A stretch of DNA of 64,000 nt from Pseudomonadota bacterium (GCA_017464085.1 JAFUEE010000163.1:45-64044); one strand, 5' to 3'. Counted from the stretch's first letter, positions 3,679 to 63,947 are shown. Notes: generated by a model not told the origin, from the sequence alone. A program made the numbers and translations.

Positions 3679-3750
3679 GGCCTATCCTTTCGGATACGGC
3701 CTTTGGCGTGCGTCGCTATCGGCCGGTGGCCGATACGCGCCGCTTTTTTT
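3679..3750 (+). terminator. Two tandem REP-like palindromes; the second ends in T7 and looks like an intrinsic terminator
   Basis: GGCCTATCC-tttc-GGATACGGCC (3679-3701) and CGCTATCGGCC-ggt-GGCCGATACGCG (3714-3739), followed by ccgc and TTTTTTT (3744-3750). Confidence 0.6.
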
Positions 3751-4156
3751 ATCTGTCTGTTATGTTTTCCTGGTGTTTCCTGCGGAAGACAAGTCTGCCA
3801 GGCAGGAAATCGTGGCGCGCGTATCCGCTCGCTTGAGAGAGAAGGATCCGAAGTATATCGTGATGATCAAGATCGAGCAGATTATATTTAAGCATCAGTG
3901 ATGGCAGACAGTCATGCGGCAAAAACTAGTCGTGCCGTGCGCTTTGCATTCTGGCGCAGGGATAGCGTGTCGGCGCGAATGTGAGGGATCGATGCGATTT
4001 TTTTTGATAAAATATGGGGATAACGACAAGATAAGCGTAAGAAAATCATGTAATGTGATATCTCTTGCGCTGGAAGTGTGTGAACTCCTGGCTGTTCTAG
4101 GGGGAAGGCTGATGTTTGGGTCGTATGGCGTACCTGATTAACGGGAGAAAGAGGCT

Positions 4157-6994
4157 GTGAGACGTGGATATATACTGAGTGTGGTGGCAGTGTCGTGGAT
4201 GTGCGGCGCATTTGTGACATCGTGCGGAGACGAGGGCGGGGAAAATAAAAAGGCGGAAGGCTGTGCATCGGGCAGCGTGATGTGCGGGGATGCATGCTGT
4301 GAATTCGAGTGCGTGGAGGGCGCCTGTATCGATGTGAAGACGGATCCTCAGAACTGCGGTTCAGCGGGCACGGTCTGTGACAAGGACGAGTCCTGCGAGT
4401 CCGGGAAATGTGTGAAACAGGGTGTTTCATGCACAGCGCCCTTGGAGCTTTGCGGTTCGGCGTGTGTGGATATGCAGACGGATGCGCTCCACTGCGGCAA
4501 GTGCGATCATGCGTGTCTCGGCAGTGAGTCTTGCGAGGGCGGCGAATGCGTGATCAAGTGCGCGGAAGGCTTGACGCTTCTGAAAGATGGCACATGCGTG
4601 GACCTGATGACGGACGGCGCGCATTGCGGGCGCGAAGGCAATGTATGCGCAGATCAGATGTACTGCAATGCCGGTGTCTGTGAATGCGTGGCAAATCATT
4701 ATGATTGCGATGGCGATCCATCGAATGGCTGCGAGTCAATCTTGATCTGCAAGGCCGGGTGTTCGGAAACGCAGACAGTCTGCGGTGATGCTTGCTGTGA
4801 TGATGGGATGATCTGCTGCGGGGATTCATGTATGGATGCGAGTGATCCGCGTCATTGCGGCGGCTGTGAGACGATATGCAGCCTTTCGCAGCGCTGCGAT
4901 GCCGGTACATGCGTGGACATGCCCGAGGGATTTGCCTGTGAGACGGCAGAAGCGCCGGATCTCTGTTGGGGGGCGTGTGTCGATCTTTCATCCGATGACA
5001 AGAATTGCGGCTCTTGCGGCGATGTCTGCGGCGAAAGCGAGACGTGCAAGGAAGGCGTGTGCCGTTCGAACAAAACTTCGAAATGCGGGGAAGATGAGCT
5101 CGAATGTTATGGCACGTGCCGAGCCGTGCTCGAGGATGACGATAACTGCGGCGCTTGCCTGAATGCCTGTGGCGCGAATGAGAAGTGCGTTCAGGGCAGC
5201 TGCGAGCTTCAGTGCGGCGATCTCATGAGATGCGGTCAGAAATGCGTGGACGCGCAGACAGATGCCAGTCATTGCGGAAACTGCGGGGAGGCCTGCAAGG
5301 CCGGAGAAGCTTGCAGCGGCGGCGTGTGCGGCTGCGCGGAAGGTCATTTTGATTGCGACGGCGATGCGTCGAATGGCTGTGAAGCCACTGAGGCGTGCCC
5401 GTGTTCTCCGGGCGCGGAACAGGCATGCTGGCGCGGTTCTGAGGCCAATATCGATCCGGAAACGAAGAAACCCTATGGCGAATGCCGGTTCGGCACGCAG
5501 AAATGCGATGCGTCAGGCAAGTTCTGGGGGCCTTGCGAGGGCGGTGTCTATCCGTCTGCGATCTCGTGCAATCAGTATGGCGACCTCAACGGCAAGGATA
5601 ATGACTGTGACGGCAAGATCGACACGGAATGCCGTTCGGAATGCGAGCTCAAGGCCGGGGAGATGTCGTATATCGGCTGCGAGTACTGGTCAGTCTATCT
5701 GTACAACCTCGTCACGACGAACCATACGCTCGTGTTCAGCAACCCGAGCGATACGGATACGGCGACGATCTATATTTATGACAAGAAACGCAACGAGAAT
5801 GTTTCCCAGCAGCCGGTTCACACGCTGGAGCTTGCGCCCAAGAAGGTGCTCGTGCAGCAGATGAATACCGGGAGCACGAATATGTGCGTCTCGACGAGCT
5901 ATATCCAGAATGCGTATCGCATCCGCTCGACATCTCCAATCACCGCCTATCAGTTCAACCCGTGGGACAAGGCGACGGCCAATTCGAACGATGCGTCATT
6001 GCTCTTGCCCGCGAATGTTCTCGGGAAAGACTATATCGGCATGACATGGCACAGCGAGAGCGGCGGCGACCATACGTCCTATCTGACGGTGGTGGCGACC
6101 TCTCCGGGCAAGACAAAGGTCAAGATCAAGACGACTGCGAATGTGGTGAAGGGCACGGCGATTGACGCGATGAAACCCGGAGAGGAACGCGAGTTCATGC
6201 TGGACCGTTATGGCGTTCTGACGCTCAACGCGCCCGCCAGTGAATCGGAAGAGCAGACGGGCACGCGAATCACTGCGGACAAGAATATCGCCGTGTTCGG
6301 CGGTTCGCGTTCGTCTTATGTGCCCAATGCGGCCAGTTCCGGGTGTTGCCGCGACCACATCGAGGAACAGCTCTTCCCGCTCCAGGCCTGGGGCAAATCG
6401 TATTATGCAGTTGCGGCGTATTCAAAGGGGAAGGCGGGGGACTTCTGGCGCATCATTGCGCGCGATGACGATACGAAAGTCACGATATCCGGGTCGCCGA
6501 CGATCCAGGACAAGACCTTCACGCTCAAGGCCGGGGAGGCCTATCCTGTGTTTGAGTCGCGCGGCGGCTTTATCGTCAAGGCGGACAAGCCGATCAGCCT
6601 CGGGCAGTTCTTGCCGAGCAAGGGCTATAACAAGCCCACGGACAATATCGGCGACCCGTCCTTTATCCTGACGGTTCCCTATGAGCAGTACCGCGATAAT
6701 TATGCTTTCCAGGTGCCGAATTCCTACAGCCAGAATTATATCACGATCATCTCTCCGGCAGATGCAAAGGTGAGTTTGGACGGAAAGATCTTGCAGGCCT
6801 CGAATTATGTGAACGGGGGCACGGAGAAGATCGGCTCGACGGGATTTGTCTATGGCTATGTCTCTGTGAGCGTGGGCGTGCACAGGGTTGAGGCGGATCA
6901 GCCGGTCGGGGTGTATGGCTATGGGTATCAGAACATCAGCTCTTACGGATATCCTGTGGGTCTTGACCTCAAAGATCTGAACAGTACGAACTGA
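4157..6994 (+). CDS. Giant Cys-rich repeat lipoprotein, paralog A, with a conserved C-terminal roughly 450-aa domain
   Basis: GTG at 4157 after a GAGAAAGAGG RBS; lipobox-like signal (VTSCG). About 10 repeats of D-x2-H-C-G-x-C-x3-C-x2-G/S-E-x-C-x2-G-x-C. The C-terminal region (YIGCEYW ... GYPVGLDLKDLNSTN) is shared with paralog B. Confidence 0.8.
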   Translation: MRRGYILSVVAVSWMCGAFVTSCGDEGGENKKAEGCASGSVMCGDACCEFECVEGACIDVKTDPQNCGSAGTVCDKDESCESGKCVKQGVSCTAPLELCGSACVDMQTDALHCGKCDHACLGSESCEGGECVIKCAEGLTLLKDGTCVDLMTDGAHCGREGNVCADQMYCNAGVCECVANHYDCDGDPSNGCESILICKAGCSETQTVCGDACCDDGMICCGDSCMDASDPRHCGGCETICSLSQRCDAGTCVDMPEGFACETAEAPDLCWGACVDLSSDDKNCGSCGDVCGESETCKEGVCRSNKTSKCGEDELECYGTCRAVLEDDDNCGACLNACGANEKCVQGSCELQCGDLMRCGQKCVDAQTDASHCGNCGEACKAGEACSGGVCGCAEGHFDCDGDASNGCEATEACPCSPGAEQACWRGSEANIDPETKKPYGECRFGTQKCDASGKFWGPCEGGVYPSAISCNQYGDLNGKDNDCDGKIDTECRSECELKAGEMSYIGCEYWSVYLYNLVTTNHTLVFSNPSDTDTATIYIYDKKRNENVSQQPVHTLELAPKKVLVQQMNTGSTNMCVSTSYIQNAYRIRSTSPITAYQFNPWDKATANSNDASLLLPANVLGKDYIGMTWHSESGGDHTSYLTVVATSPGKTKVKIKTTANVVKGTAIDAMKPGEEREFMLDRYGVLTLNAPASESEEQTGTRITADKNIAVFGGSRSSYVPNAASSGCCRDHIEEQLFPLQAWGKSYYAVAAYSKGKAGDFWRIIARDDDTKVTISGSPTIQDKTFTLKAGEAYPVFESRGGFIVKADKPISLGQFLPSKGYNKPTDNIGDPSFILTVPYEQYRDNYAFQVPNSYSQNYITIISPADAKVSLDGKILQASNYVNGGTEKIGSTGFVYGYVSVSVGVHRVEADQPVGVYGYGYQNISSYGYPVGLDLKDLNSTN

Positions 6995-7076
6995 GGTGGG
7001 CATATCTGGGGGATGAAATCAAGGGTTGTATTTGAAAAGAATCGGCAAGTGCCGGTCTGGTTTTAGAGGAGCAAAT

Positions 7077-10000
7077 ATGAACGTGAAGAAACAGGCGCGT
7101 GCTGCTGCCATATTTTTGGCTTCAGCGCTGGCATTCTATGGCTGTAGTGACAGTTCTGGCTCGGCTTCTGGCGGCGGAAGCGGAGATGCGTGCGACAAAG
7201 GCACGAAATGCGGCGATGTATGCTGCGAGGGCGCATGCGAGGGCGATGTGTGCATCGACACGTCTGCAGACCGCGAGAATTGCGGAGAAGTCGGTCATGC
7301 ATGTGAGTCCGGGGAGAAGTGCGAGTCCGGGGAATGTCAGCCGGAAAAAGTCACGTGCGGCACGGATGAGATGACGTGCGACGGCGTATGCGTCAATGTG
7401 AAGAATGATATCAATCACTGCGGCGGTTGCGGCCAGGCTTGCGAGGACAGCGAGGTGTGCGCGAACGGGCAGTGTTCGACGTCTTGCCCGGAGGGATATG
7501 CGCCGCTGAGCACTGGCGGCTGTGCCGATATGAAGACGGACAGCGACCATTGCGGTGCGGAGAACAACCGCTGCGAGACGAATTCGTTCTGCGAGGATGG
7601 CAGATGCGCGTGCACGGATGGCTGGTATGATTGCGACAATGTCAAGTCGAACGGCTGCGAATCGAACCGCACCTGCAATTTTGCTTGCGCGGAAGGGCTC
7701 AAGACTTGCGGGGAGCATTTGTGCTGCCCTGAAGCGGAAACGTGCTGTGGCGAAGGGTGCTGTGCGGTCGGGACGACCTGTTGTGGCGGCGATACGTGCT
7801 ACGACCTGCAGAATGATGCGGAGCATTGCGGCGGGTGTGATATCGGCTGCCGTGCCTCCGAAATCTGTGTGGAGGGGGCCTGCGTCGAGAATACGACGCC
7901 CTGCGAGACTGAAAATGAGATCGCCTGCTGGGGCAAGTGCACGGCCATTCAGAGCGATGTGAACAACTGCGGCGACTGCGGCAATGTCTGTCGCGAAGGC
8001 TGGTCTTGCGATGAAGGCATCTGCACGCTTCATTGCGAGGATCCGAAGACGCTTTGCGGCGATGCCTGCTATGACTTGTCCAATGACTTTTTGCACTGCG
8101 GAAGCTGCGAGACGGTCTGCGGACCGTCTCAGGTCTGCCAGGACAGCGCATGCGTGGAAATCTCCACGGTCATGCCAGACCTTGCGTGCGATCAGGAGAG
8201 CGGGGAGTCGTTATGCTGGGGCAGCTGTTACAAGCTTCAGGAAGACCGCGAGCACTGCGGCGCGTGCGATAACCGCTGCAATGAGGATCAGGATTGCACG
8301 GAAGGCAGCTGTGTCGATCGGATACCGCCCAACCCATACGGATGCGAGAATCAGGAAATTCTCTGTTATGGCAAATGCACCGATGTGTTCAGCGATGACA
8401 AGAACTGCGGGGCTTGCCTGAATGCATGTGGGGCAAATGAGAAATGCAGCCAGGGTATCTGCGAGATCCAGTGCGGGGAGCTGACGCGATGCGGCAGCAA
8501 GTGCGTGGATATACAGAGCGATGCGAAGTTCTGCGGCAGCTGTGAGACGGCCTGTGCCGATGGCCAGGTATGCACGGAGGGCGGCTGCGCCTGCGCGCCT
8601 GGCCGCTATGAGTGCGACAATGTTGCGGAAAATGGCTGCGAGTCGACGGAAGCGTGCAACTGTGTGCCGGGCTCGAAACAGGCATGCTGGCCTGGCTCCC
8701 CTGAGAATCGCCACAAAGGTATCTGCAAGGATGGCGAACAGGTCTGCGATGCATCCGGGCAGTTCTGGGGACCCTGTGTCGGCGGTGTGCTGCCTTCAAA
8801 AGTCACCTGCTCGGATGACGGCGTTCTCAACGGACTGGACAACGACTGCGACGGCAAGGTGGATGACGTGTGCTACACGACCTGCGACAATATCGCCGGC
8901 GAAAATTCCTACATCGGCTGCGAATATTGGCCCGTCTATCTCGAGAATTACTCCCCGTCCACGAAGAATCACGGGATCGTCATCAGCAACCCCAGCGAGA
9001 CGCGCACGGCGACGGTCAAGATTTTCAACCAGGCAGGCCAGAATGCCAAGCCGCCCAAGCCGCTCCATACGCTGAGCGTCAAGCCTGGCGGCCTTGCGTC
9101 CCTCGTCCTCTCCGAGGGCACGACAAACATGGTGATGAACACTGGCATCCAGGCAAAAGCGTATGTCGTCCGCACGAATACGCCGATCACGGTCTATCAG
9201 TTCAATCCCTGGGGCAAGGCATCCGTGTGCTCCAATGACGCATCGCTGCTGCTGCCAAGGAACGTGCTCGGCAAGAAATATCGCGGCATGACCTGGCAGA
9301 GCGAGAAGAGCTCGCTGCAGTCCTACCTGACTGTCGTTGCCGTGGAGCCCGGAAAGACAGCCGTTTCGTTCGACACGCGCTCGACGATCGTCGCAGGCAC
9401 CGGCGTCGCGCAGCTCGTTGCGAATGCGATCGGCAAATATGTCCTCAACCAGTTCGAGGTGCTCAATATGCTCTCGACGACGAATTCCGAGCAGACGGGC
9501 TCGTACATTGAGGCCGATCGCAAGATCGCCGTGTACGGCGGCTCGCAGTGCTCGTTCATTCCCAATAATATTTACGCATGCGACCATCTCGAGGAGCAGC
9601 TCTTCCCGATTCAGGCATGGGGCAAGTCGTATTTTGCAGTCCGCAGCGTCGCGCTCGGTGACAAGGGCGATTTCTGGCGCATCCTCGCGCATGAGGACAA
9701 CACGCAGGTCACTTTGCCCGCGAAGCTCGGCGGGACGATCACGCTTAAAGCCGGACAGTACAAGGAACTCGTCACGACCGATTCCTTCGAGATCGATGCG
9801 AACAAGCCGATCTTGGTCGGCCAGTTCTTCCCCGGCCTCGACTATCATACGAGCAATCCCAAGCACGAAGGCGATCCGGCATTCATCCTCGATGTGCCCT
9901 ATGAGCAGTATCGCTCGGAATATGCATTCATGATTCCCGACAGCTACCGCGACAACTATGTGACGATTATATCGCCAAAGGACAACGTCATCCACTACAC

Positions 10001-10328
10001 AGGGGAGGGCTATTGCAAGAGCGGCTGCAGCAACCTCGATCACTCCAAGCATGTGATGAACCCGTTCAGCAATGTCGATATCAATTCGCTGACGAGCATC
10101 GTCAAGCCGAAGAACGACAACGACGTTTCCTACACGTCTGAGAAATTGTTCACGGGCTTCAAGGAATTCGGCACGAAGGGCTATGTGTATGGCTATCTCA
10201 AGCTTGACGGCGGCACGCACAAGCTTGTCGGCGAGAAACCGTTCGGCGTCATCGGCTATGGGTTTTATGCATACACGTCCTATGGCTATCCGATCGGCCT
10301 CGACCTGAGGGTCCTCAATACCAACTGA
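7077..10328 (+). CDS. Giant Cys-rich repeat lipoprotein, paralog B
   Basis: ATG at 7077 after an AGAGGAG RBS; signal peptide with lipobox AFYGC. About 12 HCGxCG-type Cys repeats. The C-terminal domain aligns block-for-block with paralog A and ends GYPIGLDLRVLNTN. Confidence 0.8.
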   Translation: MNVKKQARAAAIFLASALAFYGCSDSSGSASGGGSGDACDKGTKCGDVCCEGACEGDVCIDTSADRENCGEVGHACESGEKCESGECQPEKVTCGTDEMTCDGVCVNVKNDINHCGGCGQACEDSEVCANGQCSTSCPEGYAPLSTGGCADMKTDSDHCGAENNRCETNSFCEDGRCACTDGWYDCDNVKSNGCESNRTCNFACAEGLKTCGEHLCCPEAETCCGEGCCAVGTTCCGGDTCYDLQNDAEHCGGCDIGCRASEICVEGACVENTTPCETENEIACWGKCTAIQSDVNNCGDCGNVCREGWSCDEGICTLHCEDPKTLCGDACYDLSNDFLHCGSCETVCGPSQVCQDSACVEISTVMPDLACDQESGESLCWGSCYKLQEDREHCGACDNRCNEDQDCTEGSCVDRIPPNPYGCENQEILCYGKCTDVFSDDKNCGACLNACGANEKCSQGICEIQCGELTRCGSKCVDIQSDAKFCGSCETACADGQVCTEGGCACAPGRYECDNVAENGCESTEACNCVPGSKQACWPGSPENRHKGICKDGEQVCDASGQFWGPCVGGVLPSKVTCSDDGVLNGLDNDCDGKVDDVCYTTCDNIAGENSYIGCEYWPVYLENYSPSTKNHGIVISNPSETRTATVKIFNQAGQNAKPPKPLHTLSVKPGGLASLVLSEGTTNMVMNTGIQAKAYVVRTNTPITVYQFNPWGKASVCSNDASLLLPRNVLGKKYRGMTWQSEKSSLQSYLTVVAVEPGKTAVSFDTRSTIVAGTGVAQLVANAIGKYVLNQFEVLNMLSTTNSEQTGSYIEADRKIAVYGGSQCSFIPNNIYACDHLEEQLFPIQAWGKSYFAVRSVALGDKGDFWRILAHEDNTQVTLPAKLGGTITLKAGQYKELVTTDSFEIDANKPILVGQFFPGLDYHTSNPKHEGDPAFILDVPYEQYRSEYAFMIPDSYRDNYVTIISPKDNVIHYTGEGYCKSGCSNLDHSKHVMNPFSNVDINSLTSIVKPKNDNDVSYTSEKLFTGFKEFGTKGYVYGYLKLDGGTHKLVGEKPFGVIGYGFYAYTSYGYPIGLDLRVLNTN

Positions 10329-10417: not shown

Positions 10418-10508
10418 ATTGTCCCCGTCGCCCTTGGTTTTCACACAGACGTTGAACACAGCCATAATCAAGGGGGGCATCTGACTCATTGCGTCAACAT
10501 TTGCGTGA

Positions 10509-10608
10509 TTTTTCCGTTTGCAGAAAATGGCCAAAGTGGGCTTACGGAATTTTTCCGTTTGCAGAAAATGGCCAAAGTGGGCTTACGGAATTTTTCCGTT
10601 TGCAGAAG
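10509..10608. repeat. 41-bp direct repeat, about 2.4 copies, each unit containing an inverted repeat TTCCGT...ACGGAA
   Basis: The unit TTTTTCCGTTTGCAGAAAATGGCCAAAGTGGGCTTACGGAA starts at 10509, 10550 and 10591 (the third copy is truncated). It is intergenic, about 200 bp upstream of the first YGPP gene. Confidence 0.8.
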
Positions 10609-10821: not shown

Positions 10822-11247
10822 ATGAAGCGAATAACGCGAGTGATCAGCATGATCAGCGGTGCGGTTGCGTCGCTGTTCACTGTGGGATGTATGAAGCCTG
10901 CCGGGGATGTGTACGGTCCGCCCGACAGTTTCGACAGGTATCGTGAGACGGCCGAGAGCGATCAGGAGGCGCCAGGGGCGGAAGGCGAAGGAAAACTTGA
11001 CCGCGAGCCTGCGCCGGAATTTCCCCAGAGCGAGGAGGAGCCCAAGAAGATTTATGGGCCACCGGAGATGCTGGAGGTCATGCCGGAGCCGCAGGTCATG
11101 CCGGATGCGCCTGACAAGCAGGCGTCTGACAGTCAGGAGGCTGAGGATGAAAAGGCTCAGAAGAGGGACTTTGAGACGCTTAAAGAGATTAATAAGTATC
11201 GCAGGGAAGGCAAGAAGGTCTATGGCCCGCCGCCTGCTCGTAAATAA
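10822..11247 (+). CDS. YGPP-motif acidic lipoprotein 1
   Basis: Signal peptide MKRITRVISMISGAVASLFTVGC (lipobox). Contains VYGPPDSF, IYGPPEML and VYGPPPA motifs and a low-complexity acidic linker. Confidence 0.6.
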   Translation: MKRITRVISMISGAVASLFTVGCMKPAGDVYGPPDSFDRYRETAESDQEAPGAEGEGKLDREPAPEFPQSEEEPKKIYGPPEMLEVMPEPQVMPDAPDKQASDSQEAEDEKAQKRDFETLKEINKYRREGKKVYGPPPARK

Positions 11248-11298
11248 ATAATGATATCAGGAATGTCCTGATGACGATCTGTCGAAGGAGAGTGCGAC

Positions 11299-11778
11299 AT
11301 GAAACGGATCACGCGCGTGATCGGTATGATCACTGGGGCGATTTCTTCATTGTTTGTCATAGGGTGTGACAGGCCTGGGGGGAAGATTTATGGTCCGCCC
11401 GATATGCTGGACGAATATCAGAGAACTGGGGAGATCAAATCGGATGCACTGGATCGTGCGTCTGATGTGTCCGACAAGCCTGAAATCGAAGCGCCTCCGT
11501 CGGCGATCTATGGTCCGCCAGAGATGCTGGATGGCGGCTTGGAAAATGCGGATATTCCAGAGTCTGAGGGCGTGCCTGCCGATATCTATGGCCCGCCTGA
11601 GATGTTCGAGGCGCCCGTGGTGGAAACGGAGCCTTCCGGAGCTTCGATGGCTGCGCAAAATAAGGATGAATCCGAGGATGATGCGGATAAAAAGGTTCGA
11701 GACAAGGACTTTGAGACGCTCAAGAAAGTCAATCACAAGCAGGCAAAGAAAACAATCTATGGTCCGCCTAAGCGGTGA
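11299..11778 (+). CDS. YGPP-motif acidic lipoprotein 2 (paralog of the preceding gene)
   Basis: Near-identical signal peptide MKRITRVIGMITGAISSLFVIGC. Four (I/V)YGPP(D/E)ML motifs and a conserved C-terminal 'KDFETLKK' block shared with gene 1. Confidence 0.6.
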   Translation: MKRITRVIGMITGAISSLFVIGCDRPGGKIYGPPDMLDEYQRTGEIKSDALDRASDVSDKPEIEAPPSAIYGPPEMLDGGLENADIPESEGVPADIYGPPEMFEAPVVETEPSGASMAAQNKDESEDDADKKVRDKDFETLKKVNHKQAKKTIYGPPKR

Positions 11779-11960
11779 TGCTGCAGGGTTCATGCGGCCC
11801 ATGGGGCTGGGGGATTGGTACGAGGGCACCGAATATGGTGGCGCGGCGTATTGGCAATGCCAATAGCCGCGCCCGCGACACGTATGCGCCGCAGGCGCAT
11901 AGGGGCGCGTTAAAGACATGATACGGAACGTTTACTGACGCAGGGATATGAGGTGCAGTC

Positions 11961-12620
11961 ATGAAAGGGATAAAGTTTACATATTGCGGCGCAGATGGCG
12001 AAAAACATTCATTTTTATTTGACCGTTCAGTGACGGAAGCATGGATCGGGGCTGGTCCGGAATGCGCGATCTGCGTGTCGGGCAAGTCGGTTCTGGCGCG
12101 TCATGCGAGGCTGTTTTGGCGGAATGGTCATGTCTTTGCAGCCTGTGTGCCGGGATGCGACCGGACGCTTGCGCCCAAAGTCGATGGGATGAGGCTTGAT
12201 GAGGGCGGGGATGAAGTGTTTCTGTGCAGCGAGCTTGTGGTGGGGGACGTGGTGATTTTCGCGTGCGCGATGGAGGAGGGCTCGCAGGCGTCCGAGGCGG
12301 AAGCTCAGCCGCAGCCGGAGCCTCCATGCTGTATTTATGGCCCGCCGTCACGGCTTTCCTGCCCGAAGCCGACTGAAAGAGATGAGGAGGAGAATGCGCG
12401 CGTAATGAAGATGCTGCAGGAGATTCGGGATACGCCGATGGTGACTTATGGCCCGCCTCAGGCATTTGCTGACGCTTGGATAGGTCAGGGCATGAAGCCG
12501 GTGCCTGCGCAGGCGTCCGGGGATGAAGGGCGAGGCAAAAGATCCGGCAGACCCCGCAGAAGGCCTGCGCAGGCGTCCGGGGATGAAGGCGAAGGCCGGT
12601 CGGGAGACGGAAAGAAATAG
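11961..12620 (+). CDS. FHA-domain protein with YGPP motifs
   Basis: No signal peptide. The N-terminal FHA-like region ends in '...KVDGMRL', the same ending as the FHA domain at 21739. Then CCIYGPPSRL and MVTYGPPQAF, followed by a duplicated 'PAQASGDEG.G' block encoded by a 26-bp direct repeat. Confidence 0.5.
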   Translation: MKGIKFTYCGADGEKHSFLFDRSVTEAWIGAGPECAICVSGKSVLARHARLFWRNGHVFAACVPGCDRTLAPKVDGMRLDEGGDEVFLCSELVVGDVVIFACAMEEGSQASEAEAQPQPEPPCCIYGPPSRLSCPKPTERDEEENARVMKMLQEIRDTPMVTYGPPQAFADAWIGQGMKPVPAQASGDEGRGKRSGRPRRRPAQASGDEGEGRSGDGKK

Positions 12621-50416: not shown

Positions 50417-50417
50417 T

Positions 50418-53884: not shown

Positions 53885-53897
53885 GCTAGTAAGCACA

Positions 53898-54040: not shown

Positions 54041-55150
54041 TTAATTTGTAATCTGTATTTCCTCGCGATAGGGCGACCACCAAGGTTCGGTATTCTTGGG
54101 CGCATTTAAGTCAATGATATCTCCAATGACTGGCGTTAAGAGATGATACGGCTTTTCTTTAGACGCAAGATATATATTTTCGAGGGGATCATACCAGTTG
54201 TGGTTGGAAAGTGTGAATTTTGCGTGGTGATAGGTCATGACATATTGGGGAGCTAATATATCTATCGCTTTGACGAGACCATCGGGCAGCAGATGTATCT
54301 GATTCCAGGATTGGTTATATTGTCCATTCTCCATGATGGCGAAATCGATAGATTTGAATTGCTCGCTAATTTTTTGGAAATGATCTCCAAAACCTGTGTC
54401 GCCAGATATATATATATTTCTTGGGCCGGCAATCATAAAGGATGCCCAGAGCGTCGGATTGCCCGACAGACGCCCGGAAAAATGGCGCGCTTCGAGCGCA
54501 TAGAGTTTTGTATCTTTGTCGATATCGATAGATTCGCCCCAGTCAAGCTCGTGTATTTTTTCTAATGGATAGCCCCAATACTCAAAGTGCTGGCCGACGC
54601 CAAGGCCGCATACGACATGCTTGACGCGGTCTTTGAGTTCGAGAACGGTCTTGTAGTCGAGATGATCCCAATGGTCATGCGTGATGATGAGATAATCGAT
54701 GTCGGGAATGTCCTCGGCGGTGTAAATTTCAGTGCCCTTGTATGGCTTGAGAGAAAAATTGATCGGAAATCTGTAGTTAAAGACTGGGTCTATCAGATAT
54801 CGGATGCCGTCTTGTTGTATTAATACCGAGGAATGACCGAACCAGATGACGAGATCTCTGTCGCGCTCGAGAGTTTTGAGGTCTGTTTTGATGGCTGGCA
54901 GCGGCTTTGAGGGGGCTTTTTCGACGCGGCCGGTTGGAGGTTCACGCATTTGAGATGAATCGCCTGATGTAAACATCTTGGAGGGCGGATCATTCTGAAA
55001 AGCGCCATCCTTATAATTCGGTGATTGCTGAATGCGCGCAAGGCGCTTCCCTTTGGGACGTTGGCCGAGCTCTTTCCACATGAGGATGCCGATAATCGTG
55101 AGGAAAAGGACGATGAGGAGGAGCAGGGCGAGGAGTATTTTTTTGATCAT
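54041..55150 (-). CDS. Membrane-anchored MBL-fold metallo-hydrolase
   Basis: N-terminal TM helix (ILLALLLLIVLFLTIIGILMW) and the HxHxDH motif 'ITHDHWDHLD'. Confidence 0.75.
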   Translation of the reverse strand: MIKKILLALLLLIVLFLTIIGILMWKELGQRPKGKRLARIQQSPNYKDGAFQNDPPSKMFTSGDSSQMREPPTGRVEKAPSKPLPAIKTDLKTLERDRDLVIWFGHSSVLIQQDGIRYLIDPVFNYRFPINFSLKPYKGTEIYTAEDIPDIDYLIITHDHWDHLDYKTVLELKDRVKHVVCGLGVGQHFEYWGYPLEKIHELDWGESIDIDKDTKLYALEARHFSGRLSGNPTLWASFMIAGPRNIYISGDTGFGDHFQKISEQFKSIDFAIMENGQYNQSWNQIHLLPDGLVKAIDILAPQYVMTYHHAKFTLSNHNWYDPLENIYLASKEKPYHLLTPVIGDIIDLNAPKNTEPWWSPYREEIQITN

Positions 55151-55420
55151 TGATGCTTTTTTGAAAGGATTTTGTTGAGGTATTGAGGATGGCTGTGTTC
55201 AACGTCTGTGGATATGAAATGCAAGGCAGTAGGCAATAGAAGGTAGGCAGTAGTGCGCATGATAACGGCTATAGTTTTTATGCAGAGTACAGTCGTTGCT
55301 CGATTGCGACAATACATGGCTATTTTATCCACTCTTGTTGAACAGAGCCTTGAAGATTCTAGGCGGTAGTGCGTGTAATTGAGGACTGAATGCGAATAGG
55401 TGCTTGGAGGTTATGATTTG

Positions 55421-56860
55421 TTAACTCTCTGTTTGCATGAGGCGTTCGAGGCGCTTTTGGGAAGCGCGCGCGATGATGGCTTTCTCGCCACGGATTTCGA
55501 CTTTGCCATCGGGTGCGCCTTTGGGTTTGCGCACATATTTGACCTGTGTGAGATGCACTTCGGCAGCTTCTGACTTCGAGCGTTTGGAATAGTGCATTGC
55601 GAGCAGGGCTGCATCCAGGATTGTCTCCTGTGAAGGCTCTGCGGATTTGATGACGATATGCGATCCGGGTATGCCCGACACATGGAGCCAGTAGTCATTG
55701 CCGCGCGTGTGATGGAACGTGAGGTCGTCGTTGTCTTTTGCAGATTTGCCAACGAGGATGAGCGTGCCATCGGCCGATTTGAATGTCTTATAGGGCTTAT
55801 GTACGGTGACTTTTGGCTTTTTGGGCTGTGCGGGGGCTGGTTTGCCGTCTGTGCCGCAGAGCTCGTCGATCTGTGTGCCAAGCTCGAGGATTTGTGAGGA
55901 ATCTTTGGCGTTGAGGACTGTTTTTTCGAGATCTTCAAGCGCGGCGCGCTTTTGGAAAGTCTGGTCGAGGCGTGCTTTGACCTGCTCGCGTGAGCGCGTC
56001 ATGCGCTTGCTGTGGGCGTATCGCTTTTCGATATTCTCGCGGATGGATATGGCCGGATCGAGCGTGATTCGCATAGGTTCGCCGGTTTCGAAGTCTGGGA
56101 GTTCCGCGTAGATCATGCCCTGTTTGAGTTTGTAGGCATAAGCGTTGAGCAGGTCTGCTTCGGCGCGCTCTCGCTCGGCATTGTCTGCGCGCATCAGCTC
56201 TTTGGAAAGGTTTTCGTAGAGCTTGTTTGCGCGAGCGAGCGTCTTGCGTATGCGCTTGAGCGCCTGATTTCTGTGAAAGTCTATCCGCTCTTTTTCATCT
56301 CTTGCGGCAAACTCGCCATCGAGCGCGGTATAAAGGTCTTCGCGATCGAGACTGTCAAAACGGTCCGTGTCGCTTTTGCGCGCCGGCGGTTCGGGCGGCG
56401 TATAGATGCCGTGAATCTTTCGCGTGTCATCCTGACCGATCATGCCCAGAACCTTTCGGGATTCGGATTCGATGAGGAAGATATGGGGGGAGCGCCCAGT
56501 GAGTTCGGCAATGAACTCGAAGAACGGGGCATTGTCAAAGCCGAACTCGAAGGTGACAATGCGGTCGTCGTCGGCGATGCGCAGCCCTGTGAGCATCGTG
56601 TTGCCGATGTATTTGCGCAGAAGCATCGTGAATGCCTGAGGCACAGGCGGCGCTTTTTTAGGCCGCGTGGTGGGATAGATGTCGAGATGTGCCGGCAAAA
56701 AATCAATGACGAGGAAAAACCGCGCGCGCGTATCTTCATCGCCATATTTTTTGAACGTGAACTGGAGTTTGTTCTCCCCGTCCGCGATGTGTTCCAGGCG
56801 CGCGTCCATGAGGTCGAAGGAAAGCTTTTCGATGAGATGGCGAAGTTCTGGGTAGTTCAT
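55421..56860 (-). CDS. NFACT-family (RqcH/FbpA-like) protein
   Basis: NFACT-N region (MNYPELRHLIEKL...), a coiled-coil middle, and the C-terminal NFACT-R/DUF814 motif 'YWLHVSGIPGSHIVIK'. I chose the start at Met 56860; the ORF extends to 56986. Confidence 0.65.
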   Translation of the reverse strand: MNYPELRHLIEKLSFDLMDARLEHIADGENKLQFTFKKYGDEDTRARFFLVIDFLPAHLDIYPTTRPKKAPPVPQAFTMLLRKYIGNTMLTGLRIADDDRIVTFEFGFDNAPFFEFIAELTGRSPHIFLIESESRKVLGMIGQDDTRKIHGIYTPPEPPARKSDTDRFDSLDREDLYTALDGEFAARDEKERIDFHRNQALKRIRKTLARANKLYENLSKELMRADNAERERAEADLLNAYAYKLKQGMIYAELPDFETGEPMRITLDPAISIRENIEKRYAHSKRMTRSREQVKARLDQTFQKRAALEDLEKTVLNAKDSSQILELGTQIDELCGTDGKPAPAQPKKPKVTVHKPYKTFKSADGTLILVGKSAKDNDDLTFHHTRGNDYWLHVSGIPGSHIVIKSAEPSQETILDAALLAMHYSKRSKSEAAEVHLTQVKYVRKPKGAPDGKVEIRGEKAIIARASQKRLERLMQTES

Positions 56861-57125
56861 AGTTTTTAGGCAGTATGCAATAGGCAGCAATAGCCGCGTA
56901 AAGGTGTGTTGAGGTATTGAGGCGTTTAAGGCAGTGGTGAGCGTGATGGATGTGTTTGCAAGGGTCTGATGATTTCCTTGGCGCATTTTGCGCCGCCCTT
57001 TCCTTTGGAAGGGATTTGGGTTCGCTTGTGCGCGACTGGCTTATAGCTGTGTGCACGGAAGAGCGTCAATCATTTTGCCAGATTGAGGTGTGGTGATGAA
57101 ATTTGGTACATAGTGTAAAAAAAAG

Positions 57126-57154
57126 TTGACAATTGAATTTGATTGTCATATGGA
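57126..57154 (+). promoter_or_regulatory. Predicted sigma70-type promoter with an overlapping 7-bp inverted repeat, upstream of the S8 protease gene
   Basis: TTGACA (57126-57131), then a 17-nt spacer, then TATGGA. The inverted repeat TGACAAT...ATTGTCA (57127-57133 / 57142-57148) spans the spacer and could be an operator. Confidence 0.35.
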
Positions 57155-57211
57155 TGGAGATAGGTATTGAGCCATCAATGATGGCTAAGGTGTGTAAGAC
57201 AAGGAGGATGT

Positions 57212-59155
57212 ATGACGCGAGTTTTTATACCCTGTGTAGTTGGAATGTTGCTTTTTGGGGAAGTTGCGTGGGCTGAGGATGTTGATATTGTTTCTCGTGC
57301 GGGAACAGAGGGACTAAGGCAACAGTTGGTTGATAGAGATAAAAGTGTTGAGACTGATGGGGTTGTCTTTTGGAAAGATGGAAATGGTAATAAGGGAAGT
57401 TATCGATTAGATAATTATGTTCCCAAGAGAGCATCGGTTCCTGATTATAATGATTTAGTAAAAAATAGTAGCCATAGGACTGTAAAAGAGAGAGCAAGTG
57501 AGGAATTGCTGAGCAAATTAGCAAATAGTAAGGATGATGATGAAATTGAAGTGTTGGTCTTGTTTGTGGATGATGTTCCGATTCCAAAATTGGCTTCATA
57601 TCATGAAACTGAACCAGAGACCTCTGTTTTTAATCTTAGTACGAAATTGTATAATGAAAAAACGTTAGATATCCTTTTGGATGTTAGAAAAAAAGAAATA
57701 CCTGTTCACTTGGAATTAGCTGGAATTGATAGTTATGAGATGGTGAATGTTTATACAGTTATCAACGCCTGTATTATTCGGACAAGTGTTAGAAATGTTA
57801 AATTGCTTGTAAAACAGGGTGATGTTCAATATATAGCATTGCCAGATGAATCAAGCCCTGCTTTCTTTCTTGATGGGGGGGATAAGCAGCTTTCAGTAAA
57901 AGCACCAACTGATACATTGGATTATATATCGAATGCACGTGCGCTTATTAAAACAGATCCATATTATAGTTATGGTTCTGGGTATATTGCACAATTGGAT
58001 GGTGGGGCTGATACGACTGGTCATGTTTTGTTGACAAATGTATACCATATTACACACGATTGTTATCATGGTACGGGGACTTTGTGTTCAGGAACTAATT
58101 TAGATCCAAGTGATTCAACTCGACATGGTCCAGCGGTTGCTTCAATTTTATCGGGAACATCTGCTTTAGGAAATGCATCAAGAGGTATGACGAATATGCA
58201 GCTTGATAGTTACAAGATTACATATTTTAATACATCAACTAATGACTGGCGTGTCTCAAGCCAAGCTGTTTTAAATGCATATAATGCATTAATTCATAGG
58301 AATGCAATGACAGTAATTGCTGAGATGCAGCAAAATGAACCTTATTATGGAACTGTTTCTACTTTGGCAAGTGGTGCGTTTTTATTAGGTTTTGCAACAA
58401 TTGCGGCAGCTGGTAACTTTGGAAGTACTGCTATGAGTGTGAGGGCTCCGGGAAATTCCAAAAATGCGATTGCTGTTGGGGCATATCATGTCCTTTCGCC
58501 ATATAACTTAGAGGATTATTCTGGGCGTGGACCCACAACTGATTCACGTATGAAGCCAGAAGTTACGGCACCTACATGGACGAGAGCAGCCAATCCTCTT
58601 GTTTCAACAACATATATAAGTCCGTTTAATGGAACAAGCGGGGCAACGCCTTATGTCGCTGGAGCGGCTGCACTCTTTAGAGGTTGGAATTCTAATTATA
58701 GTATTAATAACAATGAACCAGGTGCTATTTATGCAACATTGATTAATGCAGCAACTAGACGGCAGTCTACTCAATTTGATAATAATGAGGGTGCGGGAAG
58801 GGCAAGATTGCCGTTGTCTGCCAAGGCGTGGACTGGTAAGGCTACTGTTAATCAGAACTATGTTAGCGTGACAATTCCTATTGGAACGACTTCTTATCAA
58901 GATATTGCATTCACAATTTGGTGGCCGGAAAATCCTTCGGAAACACATAAATCATTTAGAATGGGACTCATGAATTATAATTGCGGAAGTTGGATGGGAT
59001 ATTTTCCTAATTATATTGAAGATAATAATTGGCAAAAGTATGTGATTAGTCAACAATGCACTGGAGATTGGAAATTGCGCATTATTCCTGAGAATGATGT
59101 GGATCGTGATCAGACTGTTTACTATAGTGTTATAGCATGGCAGAATGGTCACTAA
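57212..59155 (+). CDS. Secreted subtilisin-family (S8) serine peptidase (low-GC gene)
   Basis: Signal peptide MTRVFIPCVVGMLLFGEVAWA. Asp (AQLDGGAD), His (RHGPAVASIL) and Ser (NGTSGATPYVAGAAAL) catalytic-triad blocks. GC about 38%, against about 60% for the flanks. Confidence 0.85.
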   Translation: MTRVFIPCVVGMLLFGEVAWAEDVDIVSRAGTEGLRQQLVDRDKSVETDGVVFWKDGNGNKGSYRLDNYVPKRASVPDYNDLVKNSSHRTVKERASEELLSKLANSKDDDEIEVLVLFVDDVPIPKLASYHETEPETSVFNLSTKLYNEKTLDILLDVRKKEIPVHLELAGIDSYEMVNVYTVINACIIRTSVRNVKLLVKQGDVQYIALPDESSPAFFLDGGDKQLSVKAPTDTLDYISNARALIKTDPYYSYGSGYIAQLDGGADTTGHVLLTNVYHITHDCYHGTGTLCSGTNLDPSDSTRHGPAVASILSGTSALGNASRGMTNMQLDSYKITYFNTSTNDWRVSSQAVLNAYNALIHRNAMTVIAEMQQNEPYYGTVSTLASGAFLLGFATIAAAGNFGSTAMSVRAPGNSKNAIAVGAYHVLSPYNLEDYSGRGPTTDSRMKPEVTAPTWTRAANPLVSTTYISPFNGTSGATPYVAGAAALFRGWNSNYSINNNEPGAIYATLINAATRRQSTQFDNNEGAGRARLPLSAKAWTGKATVNQNYVSVTIPIGTTSYQDIAFTIWWPENPSETHKSFRMGLMNYNCGSWMGYFPNYIEDNNWQKYVISQQCTGDWKLRIIPENDVDRDQTVYYSVIAWQNGH

Positions 59156-59170
59156 TTATAGGAGGCGATT

Positions 59171-59656
59171 ATGAAAAAATTAGTATCACTGCTGGCGATC
59201 ACGTTAGGTTTGGGACTGACGGCATGCGGTTCGGACGGCGCAAATGGTGTAGATAACGGTACTAAAGCCAACAAAGCGCAGGCAATAACTTCGGATGTTA
59301 TCACTTGTTATAATGTTGAAGATAATTGCCCTGCTGGGTATGCTTGCATCAATCATATTTGCGTGCAAGTCGATTTTGATCCTTTGCCAGAACAGCCAAA
59401 ACCGGTACCAGAAGATGAAGATCGCATTCGCTGCGATGAGTTTTCGTGCGAATGTGATGAGACCACATGTAACAATAAAGATTCATGTTGGCAGGTTGCC
59501 AATTACCAACCCAATATGATTTGTGTGGATGACGGACGAATTATAGATGCCGTTTGTGAGGGAAAAGCTTGGACCTGTGGCACCGGTGGCGAGTGTGATG
59601 TCAGCAAGTGCCATAGTGGAGAAGTCTGCAAAGACGGCAAGTGCGTAGAAGAGTAA
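59171..59656 (+). CDS. Small Cys-rich lipoprotein
   Basis: Signal and lipobox LGLTACGS; 18 Cys in the mature part (CYNVEDNCPAGYACINHICV...). Confidence 0.55.
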   Translation: MKKLVSLLAITLGLGLTACGSDGANGVDNGTKANKAQAITSDVITCYNVEDNCPAGYACINHICVQVDFDPLPEQPKPVPEDEDRIRCDEFSCECDETTCNNKDSCWQVANYQPNMICVDDGRIIDAVCEGKAWTCGTGGECDVSKCHSGEVCKDGKCVEE

Positions 59657-59787
59657 TAATGTCGGCTGGCCAGATTGCCAGCCGACAGCGAAGCTTTGCT
59701 TTCTTGTTTTGATTTTGTATCTGTGAGGATTTGCCTTTTGTGATTTGCTTGCGCGTATGTTCATCATAGCTGCGTGCATAGAGAGAG

Positions 59788-59852
59788 GCGCCGGCGTATC
59801 GCGGAAGCGATAGGCGGCGCGAATCGGCGCGCGTATTGTTCAATAGCGCGCC
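59788..59852. repeat. Pair of REP-like palindromes (inverted orientation) at the low-GC/high-GC boundary
   Basis: GCGCCGGCGTATCGC-gga-AGCGATAGGCGGCGC (59788-59820) and GGCGCGCGTATTG-ttc-AATAGCGCGCC (59826-59852). Confidence 0.65.
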
Positions 59853-59960
59853 CCAAAAGGAAAATTATATTTGTATGTTTGAATATTGTTGTATATGTGT
59901 TTATAAATTTTTAAATGTTTATATAAAATATAAGATTCAAGTTGCAAATTGTGCAGATAT

Positions 59961-59987
59961 AAAAAAGCCCGCTCGGAGGGAGCGGGC
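59961..59987 (-). terminator. Intrinsic terminator of ackA (minus strand)
   Basis: GCCCGCTC-ggagg-GAGCGGGC hairpin, preceded on the plus strand by AAAAAA (that is, followed by a U-run on the minus-strand transcript). Confidence 0.7.
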
Positions 59988-60008
59988 AGCGATGGCTATA
60001 TATAATTA

Positions 60009-61199
60009 TTATTTATTGACGAGCGCGTAGGTCTGCTGAGCGATTGCGAGCTCTTCGTTTGTCGGGACAATCCAGACTTCGACTTTGGATTTGTCCGTGG
60101 AGATTTTGCGTTCTTTGCCGTGGCAGTCGTTGGCGGCGAGGTCGATATCGACGCCGAGGAGGCCGAGCTTCTTGCATACAGCTTCGCGGACGTAGGGGCT
60201 GTTCTCCCCGATGCCGGCGGTGAAGATGATGGCATCGACGTGGCCGAGGACCATCGCGTAAGCGCCGATGTACTTGACGATGCGATAGACGAAGACGTCC
60301 ATGGCGCGGATGCAGGCGGGATTGTTTTCGGCGACGCCGTCTTCGATGACGCGGCAGTCATTGGAGATGCCGGAGAGGCCGAGGAGGCCGGACTGTTTGT
60401 TGATGAGGTTGTCAAGCTGGTCGGCGTTCATGCCTTTGGTGCGGCCGAGATAGGTGAGGACGGCGGGGTCGATGTCGCCGCAGCGCGTGCCCATGCAGAG
60501 GCCTTCGAGCGGCGTGAGTCCCATCGAGGTGTCGACGGATTTGCCGCCCTGGACGGCCGTGATCGAGGAGCCGCTGCCGAGGTGGCAGCTGATGATGTTC
60601 ATGTCCTTGATGTCGCGGCCCAGGAGGTTCGCGAGGCGGTTCGAGACGAACTCATGGGACGTGCCGTGCGCGCCGTAACGGCGGATGTGGTCTTCCGTGT
60701 AGAGTTTGTAGGGAATCGCATAGAGATAGGCGTATTCGGGGATTGTCTGATGGAAAGACGTGTCGAAGACGGTGACGTTCGGAACGCCGGGAAGTAGCTT
60801 CTGGGCGACTTTGAGGCCGATGACATGCGCGGGGACATGGAGCGGATCGAGGGGATAGACGCGCTCGATTTCGTCGATGATGCTCTGGTCGACGAGGCAG
60901 GTTTTGGTGAGTTTTTCGCCGCCGTGAACGACGCGGTGACCGACGGCCTTGATTTCGTCGAGGGATTTGATCGTGCCGTCGAGGAGGAGTTCGAAGACGC
61001 GCTTGAGGCCGGCTTCGTGGGTCGGGAAGACTTCGTCGGTGATCTCGACTTTTTTGCCGTCGGCTGTCTTGTGCTTGAGGATGCCGACTTCTTCGCCGAT
61101 GCGCTCGACGTTGCCCTTGGCGAGCACGTCGCCGGCAGGCATATCGAGGAGCTGATATTTGACTGTAGAGGAACCGCAGTTGATGACGAGTAATTTCAT
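60009..61199 (-). CDS. ackA: Acetate kinase
   Basis: MKLLVINCGSSTVKYQLLDM..., with the HLGSGSS and FTAGIGEN motifs. Confidence 0.93.
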   Translation of the reverse strand: MKLLVINCGSSTVKYQLLDMPAGDVLAKGNVERIGEEVGILKHKTADGKKVEITDEVFPTHEAGLKRVFELLLDGTIKSLDEIKAVGHRVVHGGEKLTKTCLVDQSIIDEIERVYPLDPLHVPAHVIGLKVAQKLLPGVPNVTVFDTSFHQTIPEYAYLYAIPYKLYTEDHIRRYGAHGTSHEFVSNRLANLLGRDIKDMNIISCHLGSGSSITAVQGGKSVDTSMGLTPLEGLCMGTRCGDIDPAVLTYLGRTKGMNADQLDNLINKQSGLLGLSGISNDCRVIEDGVAENNPACIRAMDVFVYRIVKYIGAYAMVLGHVDAIIFTAGIGENSPYVREAVCKKLGLLGVDIDLAANDCHGKERKISTDKSKVEVWIVPTNEELAIAQQTYALVNK

Positions 61200-63662: not shown

Positions 63663-63818
63663 TCCTATATCTCCATTTGAAAAGCGCCAGATTTGGAAAA
63701 TATCTGGCAGTGTAAAGACGTTATGAGCCATTTCTGAGAAAACATGCCCAAAAATGGCGCAAGGCTTTTACTCCAAATCAAGCATTTGAGCGAGATATTT
63801 TATATATATTGTGTCGGG

Positions 63819-63947
63819 GCGCGGCTATCTGCGATACGCCGCTTGCGCTCGCCTATGCCTGACGGCATACGGCGCTCGGCGGCATGTGGGCGCGGCTATC
63901 TGCGATACGCCGCTTGGCGCGCGCCTATGCCTGACGGCATACGGCGC
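63819..63947. repeat. Four REP-like palindromes arranged as an approximately 71-bp tandem duplication
   Basis: The unit GCGCGGCTATC-tgc-GATACGCCGC + CGCCTATGCC-tgac-GGCATACGGCG occurs at 63819-63874 and is repeated at 63890-63947. Confidence 0.7.

Follow-up and report, generated by a model that had tools for sequence, protein, structure and literature searches.

A lineage-specific family of REP-like extragenic hairpins built around a fixed nine-base core

When a bacterial hairpin is dispersed over many intergenic sites, is it the fold or the sequence that is held by selection, and what would read it? This question is raised by a 64,000-nt stretch of DNA from a bacterium deposited as Pseudomonadota (JAFUEE010000163.1:45-64044; hereafter, the window), whose intergenic share of about 7.9 kb (12%) holds 28 copies of a short imperfect palindrome in 15 clusters, every one of them between genes. 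Repeats of the repetitive extragenic palindrome (REP) type are abundant, their spread and function are debated, and an end tag together with a conserved palindrome is the defining mark of the well-studied families. For the family described here, the answer to the first part of the question is both: the stems are held as structure and nine internal bases as sequence.

Census and anatomy of the hairpins

Copies were counted with a CTAT...ATACG scan, pairing being measured on each side, and with a covariance model built from 34 copies, the latter giving about 30 hits of at least 20 bits in the 64-kb window. Most copies are missed by a simple consensus terminator scan, which tolerates no bulges, and sliding RNAfold windows, noisy in DNA with 57% guanine plus cytosine (GC), were used only for bulge retention and for terminators lacking the core. 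The pattern GCTAT-N6-30-ATACGC matches 20 times, against 0.43 ± 0.70 times in dinucleotide shuffles of the window. The observation of a dispersed hairpin family, made in an original prediction from inspection of the same DNA, is thus confirmed: all copies listed there were recovered by the stem-tested scan and the covariance model, with the one given at 39595 placed at about 39585, and five had been overlooked (11840-11873, 31011-31052, 31053-31090 and the degenerate 15430-15463 and 15476-15509, all on the minus strand). The tandem duplications of 37 bp at 21249/21286 and of 71 bp at 63817/63888 were found as described, and a third one, with a 45-46-bp unit, spans 15406-15508. The copies are as follows (window coordinates, strand, description, score).

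3676-3704 (+): hairpin, first of direct doublet A, 3' of a 384-aa gene; AAAGGC-CTAT-CC-tttc-GG-ATACG-GCCTTT; 25.4 bits
3710-3743 (+): hairpin, second of doublet A, followed by T7, predicted intrinsic terminator; minimum-energy fold retains the bulged C; 43.1 bits
10348-10380 (+): hairpin, first of doublet B, 3' of the second Stig1/IgGFc-binding gene; 42.1 bits
10381-10417 (+): hairpin, second of doublet B; A-tract and T6 lengthen the outer stem, predicted terminator; 31.9 bits
11840-11873 (-): hairpin, doublet C, antisense between two plus-strand genes; 47.6 bits, the best in the window
11875-11908 (-): hairpin, doublet C, outer stem imperfect; 26.3 bits
14782-14817 (+): hairpin, first of doublet D, 3' of groEL; kept in L083 with compensated stems; 41.9 bits
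14819-14852 (+): hairpin, second of doublet D, followed by a T-run (predicted terminator); outer stem GAAyGCCG/CGGCrTTT; 37.0 bits
15430-15463 (-): degenerate copy in the 45-46-bp tandem repeat, 3' of a 233-aa gene; the matching site in L188 has an intact copy; 22.6 bits
15476-15509 (-): degenerate copy in the same tandem repeat, core changed to CTAC; 20.9 bits
21249-21284 (+): hairpin, cluster F, first unit of the exact 37-bp duplication, divergent promoter region; 42.5 bits
21286-21321 (+): hairpin, cluster F, second unit of the 37-bp duplication; 43.7 bits
21404-21439 (-): hairpin, cluster G, inner part GCGC-cct-GCGC; 35.1 bits
21440-21475 (-): hairpin, cluster G, inner stem as in the 21404 copy, loop reverse-complemented (agg); 33.6 bits
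31011-31052 (-): copy whose apical part is long and imperfect; T7 follows on the minus strand, predicted terminator of the M16 peptidase gene; kept in L188; 14 bits
31053-31090 (-): hairpin, first of doublet H; kept at the matching site of L188; 35.6 bits
34094-34127 (+): single hairpin, antisense between two minus-strand genes (xseA, M16 peptidase); 39.3 bits
39579-39617 (+): single hairpin, antisense between two minus-strand genes; 31.1 bits
43870-43906 (-): single hairpin, divergent intergenic region; 40.7 bits
49724-49757 (+): hairpin, first of doublet L, 3' of a 382-aa FKBP-like gene, left edge of a low-GC block; 22.1 bits
49756-49789 (+): hairpin, second of doublet L; 43.4 bits
50845-50867 (unstranded): symmetric bulge-less variant GGCGTAT-TGC-ttt-GCA-ATACGCC, followed by T6 (predicted terminator); 15.6 bits
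59787-59821 (-): hairpin, doublet N, 3' of ackA, one mismatch at the first outer pair; 28.0 bits
59824-59854 (-): hairpin, doublet N; 29.8 bits
63817-63846 (+): hairpin, array O type a, first 71-bp unit, upstream of pta; 20.5 bits
63845-63879 (+): hairpin, array O type b, first unit; 33.6 bits
63888-63917 (+): hairpin, array O type a, second unit; 21.0 bits
63917-63951 (+): hairpin, array O type b, second unit; 35.9 bits

A copy has the layout 5'-outer stem (2-11 bp)-C-TAT-inner stem (1-6 bp)-loop (3-5 nt)-inner stem'-ATA-[C]-G-outer stem', in which the bracketed C is partnerless and stays bulged in minimum-energy folds, so that an outer helix, a C-G pair, one extrahelical base, three A-T pairs and an apical hairpin follow one another. 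The copy at 50845, previously counted as a regular member, is instead a symmetric GGCGTAT...ATACGCC variant without the bulge. That the inner stem differs between copies and nevertheless stays paired had been stated before and is borne out by strong covariation; the outer stem is variable too and pairs as well as the inner one. In the alignment of 34 copies, CTAT and ATACG are the only invariant columns (nine bases), while between two and five kinds of Watson-Crick pair occur in every remaining stem column. Paired cells make up 86% of this alignment, cells changed on both sides number 112 (shuffles: 43.5 ± 4.8), and sliding the partners brings the covariation score down from 0.437 to 0.07-0.13. 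The conserved flanks had been drawn as GCTAT(C) and (G)ATACGC(C); CTAT and ATACG are indeed fixed, but the next pair outward covaries, being G-C mostly and C-G in some copies.

The core behaves differently from the stems. DNA of the lineage holds 37 copies with the bulged C and one symmetric GCGTAT...ATACGC variant (50845), and a search of this DNA returned no compensated core (e.g. CTAC/GTACG), no other bulge base and no bulge-less CTAT...ATAG. The nine-base core is conserved as sequence, beyond structure, and the earlier notion that selection acts on the hairpin rather than on the primary sequence holds for the stems but not for the core. As a separate observation, L193:742-777 and L192:4470-4505, from two strains with 0.5% divergence, are distinguished by a C>T substitution at the bulge in one of the copies (ATACG > ATATG).

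All ten doublets and arrays in the window are direct repeats, abutting or 0-10 nt apart. Flank profiles of 41 hairpins revealed no GTAG or CGTC tag, T at position +1 being the only enriched base (23/41). The 3' junction on the CTAT strand (last stem base plus first flank base) reads CT in 16 of 49 distinct hairpins from the window and its relatives; CT is also the dinucleotide cleaved beside REPs by the REP-associated tyrosine transposase (RAYT) of E. coli (PMC8266576). Rfam gave no match in the window at gathering threshold and, for five relative loci at E <= 1, tRNAs and spurious miRNA-like matches only. The consensus, which the original prediction had called unfamiliar, likewise fits no described GTAG or CGTC REP family (PMC3733652).

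Host lineage, persistence and turnover

The window is identical (100% over the 21.6 kb compared) to the ruminant-gut metagenome scaffold XIEF21-1_SAMN15829977_METAG-scaffold_467 (ENA). It carries housekeeping genes (cysS, groES/EL, infC, xseA, folD, ackA-pta) along with genes for lineage-specific proteins (Stig1/IgGFc-binding giants, FHA, Ser/Thr kinase, dynamin-like GTPase, NFACT). By GroEL, the nearest GTDB genomes (84-86% identity) are uncultured gut metagenome-assembled genomes (MAGs) labelled Myxococcota, Myxococcales or "Proteobacteria bacterium", and all remaining genomes lie at or below 65%; by AckA, the nearest named relative is a Bradymonadales MAG (59%). Relatives were sampled via three anchors, namely GroEL (ten loci), a methyltransferase and AckA.

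Strict hairpins occur at a density of 0.36 per kb in the window and of 0.07-0.76 per kb in the ten GroEL-anchored relatives, and three were found in 2.18 Mb of unrelated loci. The covariance model detected 17 distinct copies in 126 kb of relatives, whereas no hit in 1.59 Mb of unrelated genomes exceeded 15.5 bits. All relatives sampled have the motif (methyltransferase identity 79%, 66% and 61%; AckA identity 90% and 83%), the GC content of motif-bearing genomes ranging from 44 to 57%, and it is absent at the next outgroup locus (51% methyltransferase identity). A viral scan for the bare hairpin gave mainly single chance matches, and one phage type truly bears the element: a 43-kb contig with portal, terminase and Mu-F genes has four copies and a related contig two, located between genes. 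The motif is specific to one lineage, deep-branching gut bacteria related to Myxococcota.

Synteny with the GroEL-anchored relatives (tblastn with the window proteins) is limited to groES-groEL, and matching sites were therefore taken from L083 and from the methyltransferase-anchored L188. The doublet 3' of groEL stands in the same place in the window and in L083 (93% GroEL identity), and between the two, seven stem pairs have changed in both partners and no pair in a single partner; one of the L083 copies has an A>T change in the core. The outer stem GAAyGCCG/CGGCrTTT of the second groEL hairpin is common to the window, L083 and the far more distant L191, among which the apical part differs in sequence and in length (9 to 27 nt). 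The syntenic L188 retains the doublet that separates the M16 peptidase gene from the TPR gene, as well as the copy that follows the 233-aa gene. At the groEL, M16 peptidase and 233-aa gene sites, position, orientation and core are all retained.

Elsewhere, copies have come or gone. Clusters F and G (four copies, 21249-21475) are missing from L188, though the adjacent leader is nearly identical, and array O (four copies) is missing from L199, the closest ackA locus; a 78-bp doublet is duplicated between two strains differing by 0.5%. All hairpins are unchanged in L186, L001 and L002, three near-identical assemblies. Twice, neighbouring copies have the same inner stem and a reverse-complemented loop (window 21411/21447, CCT versus AGG; L005 9746/9781, TTGC versus GCAA), with the orientation of the bulge unchanged (window 21411-21468; L005:9746-9808), which suggests that the apical palindrome is flipped in the DNA itself. 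These comparisons show copies that persist for long at the same intergenic sites, under purifying selection, arrays that expand by local tandem duplication, and clusters that are gained or lost. The leader next to clusters F and G merits mention of its own: about 130 nt upstream of the FHA-domain gene (window ~21700-21850) are nearly identical to L188, even though identity is no more than about 79% in the flanking proteins and the remaining intergenic DNA is unalignable. The stretch could represent a small RNA or a conserved leader.

In sister genera and in two phage contigs, the bulged hairpin forms the middle module of a composite element of 85-130 nt, with the layout GGGGG-N4-7-CCCCC, NNC, GNNG-CTAT-(apical hairpin, 9-60 nt)-ATACG-CNNC, (TA)CCCCC, N3-5, GCGGGG-loop-CCCCGC-AACGCCCC. 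The 13-nt tail is invariant, and the G and C runs permit alternative pairings. The composite occurs nowhere in the window and has no Rfam match. Its twelve copies, and a partial one, are located as follows.

L003:4491-4575 (composite)
L003:266-362, minus strand (composite)
L006:826-941 (composite)
L085:2526-2654 (composite)
L086:9346-9445 (composite)
L086:13542-13637, minus strand (composite)
L106:8403-8519 (composite)
L176:4574-4671 (composite)
L176:3014-3100, minus strand (composite)
L183:2207-2296, minus strand (composite)
L196:5733-5813 (composite)
L197:3073-3184, minus strand (composite)
L199:4155-4215 (partial form, after ackA in the closest AckA relative)

In about 8 of the 12 composites, TAC follows the hairpin on the CTAT strand, which places GTAG, the hallmark tag of RAYT-associated REPs (PMC3733652, PMC8266576), directly 5' of the hairpin on the complementary strand.

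Folding strand, termination and the putative reader

Taken together, the family may be a lineage-specific, REP-like set of extragenic palindromes that is read by a hairpin-specific protein, a proposal we consider about evenly balanced between right and wrong. A protein specific for both sequence and structure would dock on the nine-base core of a folded single strand, the likeliest substrate being the CGTAT...ATAG strand as DNA, in a mode comparable to that of RAYT (TnpA-REP), of the IS200/IS605 TnpA and of integron integrases on hairpins with extrahelical bases. The two helices are free to change, provided that they remain Watson-Crick paired, and sense copies at gene 3' ends would have been co-opted as hairpins of the 3' untranslated region (UTR), with the last hairpin and its T-run serving as intrinsic terminator, a step that is partly shown at the level of sequence. 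By analogy, the closest mechanistic precedent is the E. coli RAYT, which requires a stem irregularity, contacts a bulged C and ignores the sequence of loop and upper stem (PMC8266576). The family is filed as a REP variant, not as a proven member of a RAYT-REP system.

As for the strand that folds, the loops are informative. On the strand complementary to CTAT...ATACG, the loop is G-N-A or G-N-N-A in 22 of 49 distinct hairpins, compared with 1 on the CTAT strand (p = 6e-6); such loops comprise GCA (9), GAA (5), GCAA, GTCA, GAAA and others, and the loop-closing pair is 5'-C...G-3' in 41 of the 49. Loops of the C(GNA)G and C(GNNA)G types confer extra stability on DNA mini-hairpins (PMC3201870, PMC13037366). 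The GTAG of the composites lies on the same strand as the G-N-A loops. Among 413 internal stem pairs there are no G-T pairs and 7 A-C/C-A mismatches, which would be G-T wobbles on the complementary strand. The loops thus point to the complementary strand as the folding strand, whereas the mismatch argument is weak.

Several observations weigh against a reader of this kind. The mismatch argument is weakened by the stem ends, which have 13 G-T versus 5 A-C juxtapositions, and there is no orientation bias relative to the GC-skew (replication) strand (8 clusters plus, 6 minus). Sense bias and T-runs, set out below, favour the CTAT...ATACG strand as RNA and conflict with the loop polarity. No RAYT/Y1 transposase (PF01797) was found by Pfam among 40 window proteins, and an E. 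coli TnpA-REP probe (identical to PDB 4ER8) had no match by phmmer and tblastn in 297.5 kb of lineage DNA, a sample far too small to exclude a RAYT. Window copies are devoid of a GTAG or CGTC tag, nearly all differ in their stems, unlike the product of recent copy-and-paste mobility, and the doublets are direct, unlike those of bacterial interspersed mosaic elements (BIMEs) and REP doublets forming hairpins (REPINs). Two small genes flanked by the inverted clusters B and C were considered as nuclease candidates and turned out to encode IYGPP-repeat lipoproteins.

The last hairpin of a sense array is usually followed by a T-run (window 3710, 10381, 14819, 31011 and 50845; also L083, L086, L191 and L192), and the T-run copies, several with an upstream A-tract, lie just past stop codons. 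T6-7 had been noted in the original prediction after five copies, which stands for those at 3710, 10381, 14819 and 50845; at 21475 there is only T5, and the hairpin is reverse-sense on that strand. A GC-rich hairpin followed by T5-T7 is seen in 7 of the 28 copies, counting 21440 (in the opposite reading only) and 3676 (weakly), and about three quarters of the 28 lack a T-run. On this pattern it is plausible that T-run copies are intrinsic terminators. Over all lineage loci, the 24 clusters between tandem genes divide into 19 that run in the sense of the upstream gene and 5 that are antisense to it (p = 0.007), and copies in divergent promoter regions are found at 21249-21475, at 43870 and in L200 (14757). 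The window also has ordinary terminators without the core, e.g. at 2450 and 48530. Since such terminators coexist with the family and some copies are antisense or in promoter regions, the core is neither needed for termination nor confined to it.

This gene context is what makes a purely RNA-level role the main rival, one we hold to be possible but clearly less probable than a reader of folded DNA. Here, a CUAU/AUA[C]G hairpin in mRNA 3' UTRs would be bound by a lineage-specific RNA-binding protein or nuclease that sets termination efficiency, 3'-end protection or processing, arrays acting as stacked exonuclease barriers and the last hairpin as terminator. The sense bias and the T-runs with their A-tracts, in the window as well as in relatives, are in line with such a role, as are the compensatory changes in conserved copies at gene 3' ends, the intergenic position of the phage copies, and a doublet without T-run between groES and groEL in L005, L084 and L087, reminiscent of intra-operon REPs. 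It is harder to reconcile with the five antisense clusters, with the copies (at least four) in divergent promoter regions, and with two copies oppositely oriented in one phage operon; moreover, the stems are virtually free of internal G-U pairs yet contain A-C mismatches, the stable G-N(N)-A loops fall on the non-mRNA strand, and several clear terminators of the window do without the core.

If the reader is a hairpin-specific protein, a more specific version can be formulated, which we put forward tentatively as a doubtful proposition: the core would be the operator of a non-RAYT hairpin-reading protein, hitherto undescribed, common to the Myxococcota-related gut lineage and its phages and would tag intergenic hairpins, the tagged hairpin being the central module of the three-hairpin element (GGGGG-loop-CCCCC / tag hairpin / GCGGGG-loop-CCCCGC-AACGCCCC) in sister genera. 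Were this true, the family would represent structured repeats of a new class, in which an extrahelical-base motif inside the element, rather than a tag at its end, determines spread or function.

A site in double-stranded DNA is unlikely. At E. coli BIMEs, gyrase, IHF and Pol I bind, and by comparison a nucleoid-associated or topology-related protein could bind an extruded cruciform or bent palindrome and organise supercoiling domains. The strict Watson-Crick symmetry of both stems would fit, as would the presence of both orientations in all intergenic classes including divergent ones, the lack of bias relative to the GC-skew strand and the loop flips between neighbours, a DNA-level event. However, a symmetric binder would not impose the strand polarity seen in loops, bulge and gene-relative orientation; the stems are short (about 12-17 bp in total), which makes extrusion unfavourable, and no candidate protein is known.

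Two further explanations can be dealt with briefly. Pairs of the Neisseria DNA uptake sequence (DUS) form terminator hairpins, and a DUS-type or uptake signal sequence (USS)-type signal would mean that a short ATACGC motif is selected and hairpins from inverted pairs are tolerated in terminators; ATACGC does occur 60 times in the window against 26 ± 5 expected, but about 25 of the 60 are the hairpin copies and the other 35 or so are near expectation, the arms are asymmetric with the bulge kept in 37 cases versus 1, no copy lies within a gene, and the arm spacing varies from 5 to about 60 nt, which leaves this reading close to refuted and highly improbable. That there is no real family, only chance hairpins or remains of one duplicated segment, is refuted: despite the recent tandem duplicates (21249/21286, 63817/63888, 15406-15508), the 15 separate clusters have unrelated stems and flanks, the unrelated DNA is empty at the model score given above, and the motif spans relatives down to about 61% methyltransferase identity.

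Surroundings of the repeats and comparison with known systems

The original prediction had placed two pairs at the borders of a low-GC insertion, and this is where they are. Both pairs (49724-49789 and 59787-59854) lie just 3' of a flanking gene, FKBP-like and ackA, respectively, in sense orientation, and their position needs no tie to an insertion; L199 is not syntenic downstream of ackA. The low-GC block itself (49790-60010; 35-46% GC versus 57% elsewhere) begins with an AT-only 15-bp repeat (49793-49829) and encodes a DUF4160 protein, a 993-aa protein, an MBL-fold protein and a subtilase; it is not uniform, an NFACT/RqcH-like gene (55421-56986) having 55% GC.

Further features of the window stand apart from the hairpins. 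GC skew is positive in all 2-kb bins (0.02 to 0.29; window 1-64000) regardless of gene strand, an unusually strong and uniform asymmetry. Two adjacent paralogues of 945 and ~1083-1100 aa (4157-10328) have Stig1-like Cys-rich repeats and a C-terminal IgGFc-binding domain, and a similar protein is encoded near the methyltransferase in the relative L191. Three neighbouring small proteins (141, 159 and 219 aa; 10822-12620) have common (I/T)YGPP repeats and no Pfam match, the first two with near-identical lipoprotein-type signal peptides (MKRITRVI...GC). A perfect 41-bp intergenic tandem repeat (10508-10607, 2.4 copies) and a 24-bp in-frame coding repeat (2163-2281, 5 copies) differ in copy number from the otherwise identical L186.

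Among known systems, intrinsic terminators resemble the 7 of 28 copies with a GC-rich hairpin and T5-T7. Terminators have no common sequence core, whereas here the core is fixed and some copies are antisense or in promoter regions. The attC sites of integrons are read by a protein as folded single-stranded DNA, with extrahelical bases that give strand selectivity, and the window element is like them in conserving structure over sequence, in its length-variable central part and in its extrahelical bases; it is much shorter, however, and dispersed. An attC identity was rejected on the grounds that no copy has R/L boxes (RYYYAAC / GTTRRRY), that there is no cassette array, and that no integrase is among the scanned proteins. 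The subterminal hairpins of IS200/IS605 elements, which are identical between copies, flank the transposase gene and are read strand-specifically by an HUH Y1 enzyme, are also imperfect hairpins with an extrahelical base; unlike these, the family has no associated gene and no replication-strand bias. An iron-responsive element (IRE)-like, K-turn, UNCG or GNRA motif on the mRNA strand, a TadA-type UACG loop and a CRISPR repeat were rejected on inspection.

The closest likeness is to the REP/BIME elements of E. coli, in particular group 2: both consist of short, imperfect, GC-rich palindromes of 25-40 nt that lie outside genes, are lineage-specific, occur in high copy number and sit mostly at gene 3' ends, with some copies serving, plausibly so in the present family, in termination or mRNA stability, and both combine a conserved stem irregularity with a loop and upper stem tolerant of change. 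In sister-genus copies, GTAG even adjoins the hairpin on one strand, as in REPs. The REP/BIME-type assignment made in the original prediction can thus be kept insofar as the family is dispersed, extragenic, structure-selected and lineage-specific, but it differs from REP/BIME in that the fixed bases are internal to the helix, with a variable stem on either side, and not at an end; its stems are almost copy-specific, with 9 invariant columns and no palindrome consensus for the family; the window doublets are direct and abutting, not inverted as in BIMEs and REPINs; and the window copies have no GTAG tag and, in the window and the 297.5 kb searched, no RAYT. Likewise, the GTAG/CGTC REP superfamilies of Di Nocera et al. 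(2013) have an unpaired terminal tetranucleotide and a recognisable stem consensus (PMC3733652), neither of which is seen in the window, and G-T pairs are common in REP stems (PMC3733652) but virtually absent inside those of the window family. On the other side of the balance, these superfamilies too have sub-families with complementary stem changes, lie mainly 3' of genes and are in many cases probably transcribed (PMC3733652).

With the sequence requirement cut down to nine internal bases around one extrahelical base and both stems free to covary, the family amounts to a clean natural experiment on what a hairpin-reading protein must recognise. It provides a diagnostic motif for contig binning and phage-host linking in the gut lineage, and folded DNA or RNA oligonucleotides used as bait would offer a route to the binding protein. 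Should the reader be a RAYT, the recognition range of REP systems would be widened; should it be another protein, the hairpins would mark a new protein-hairpin system.

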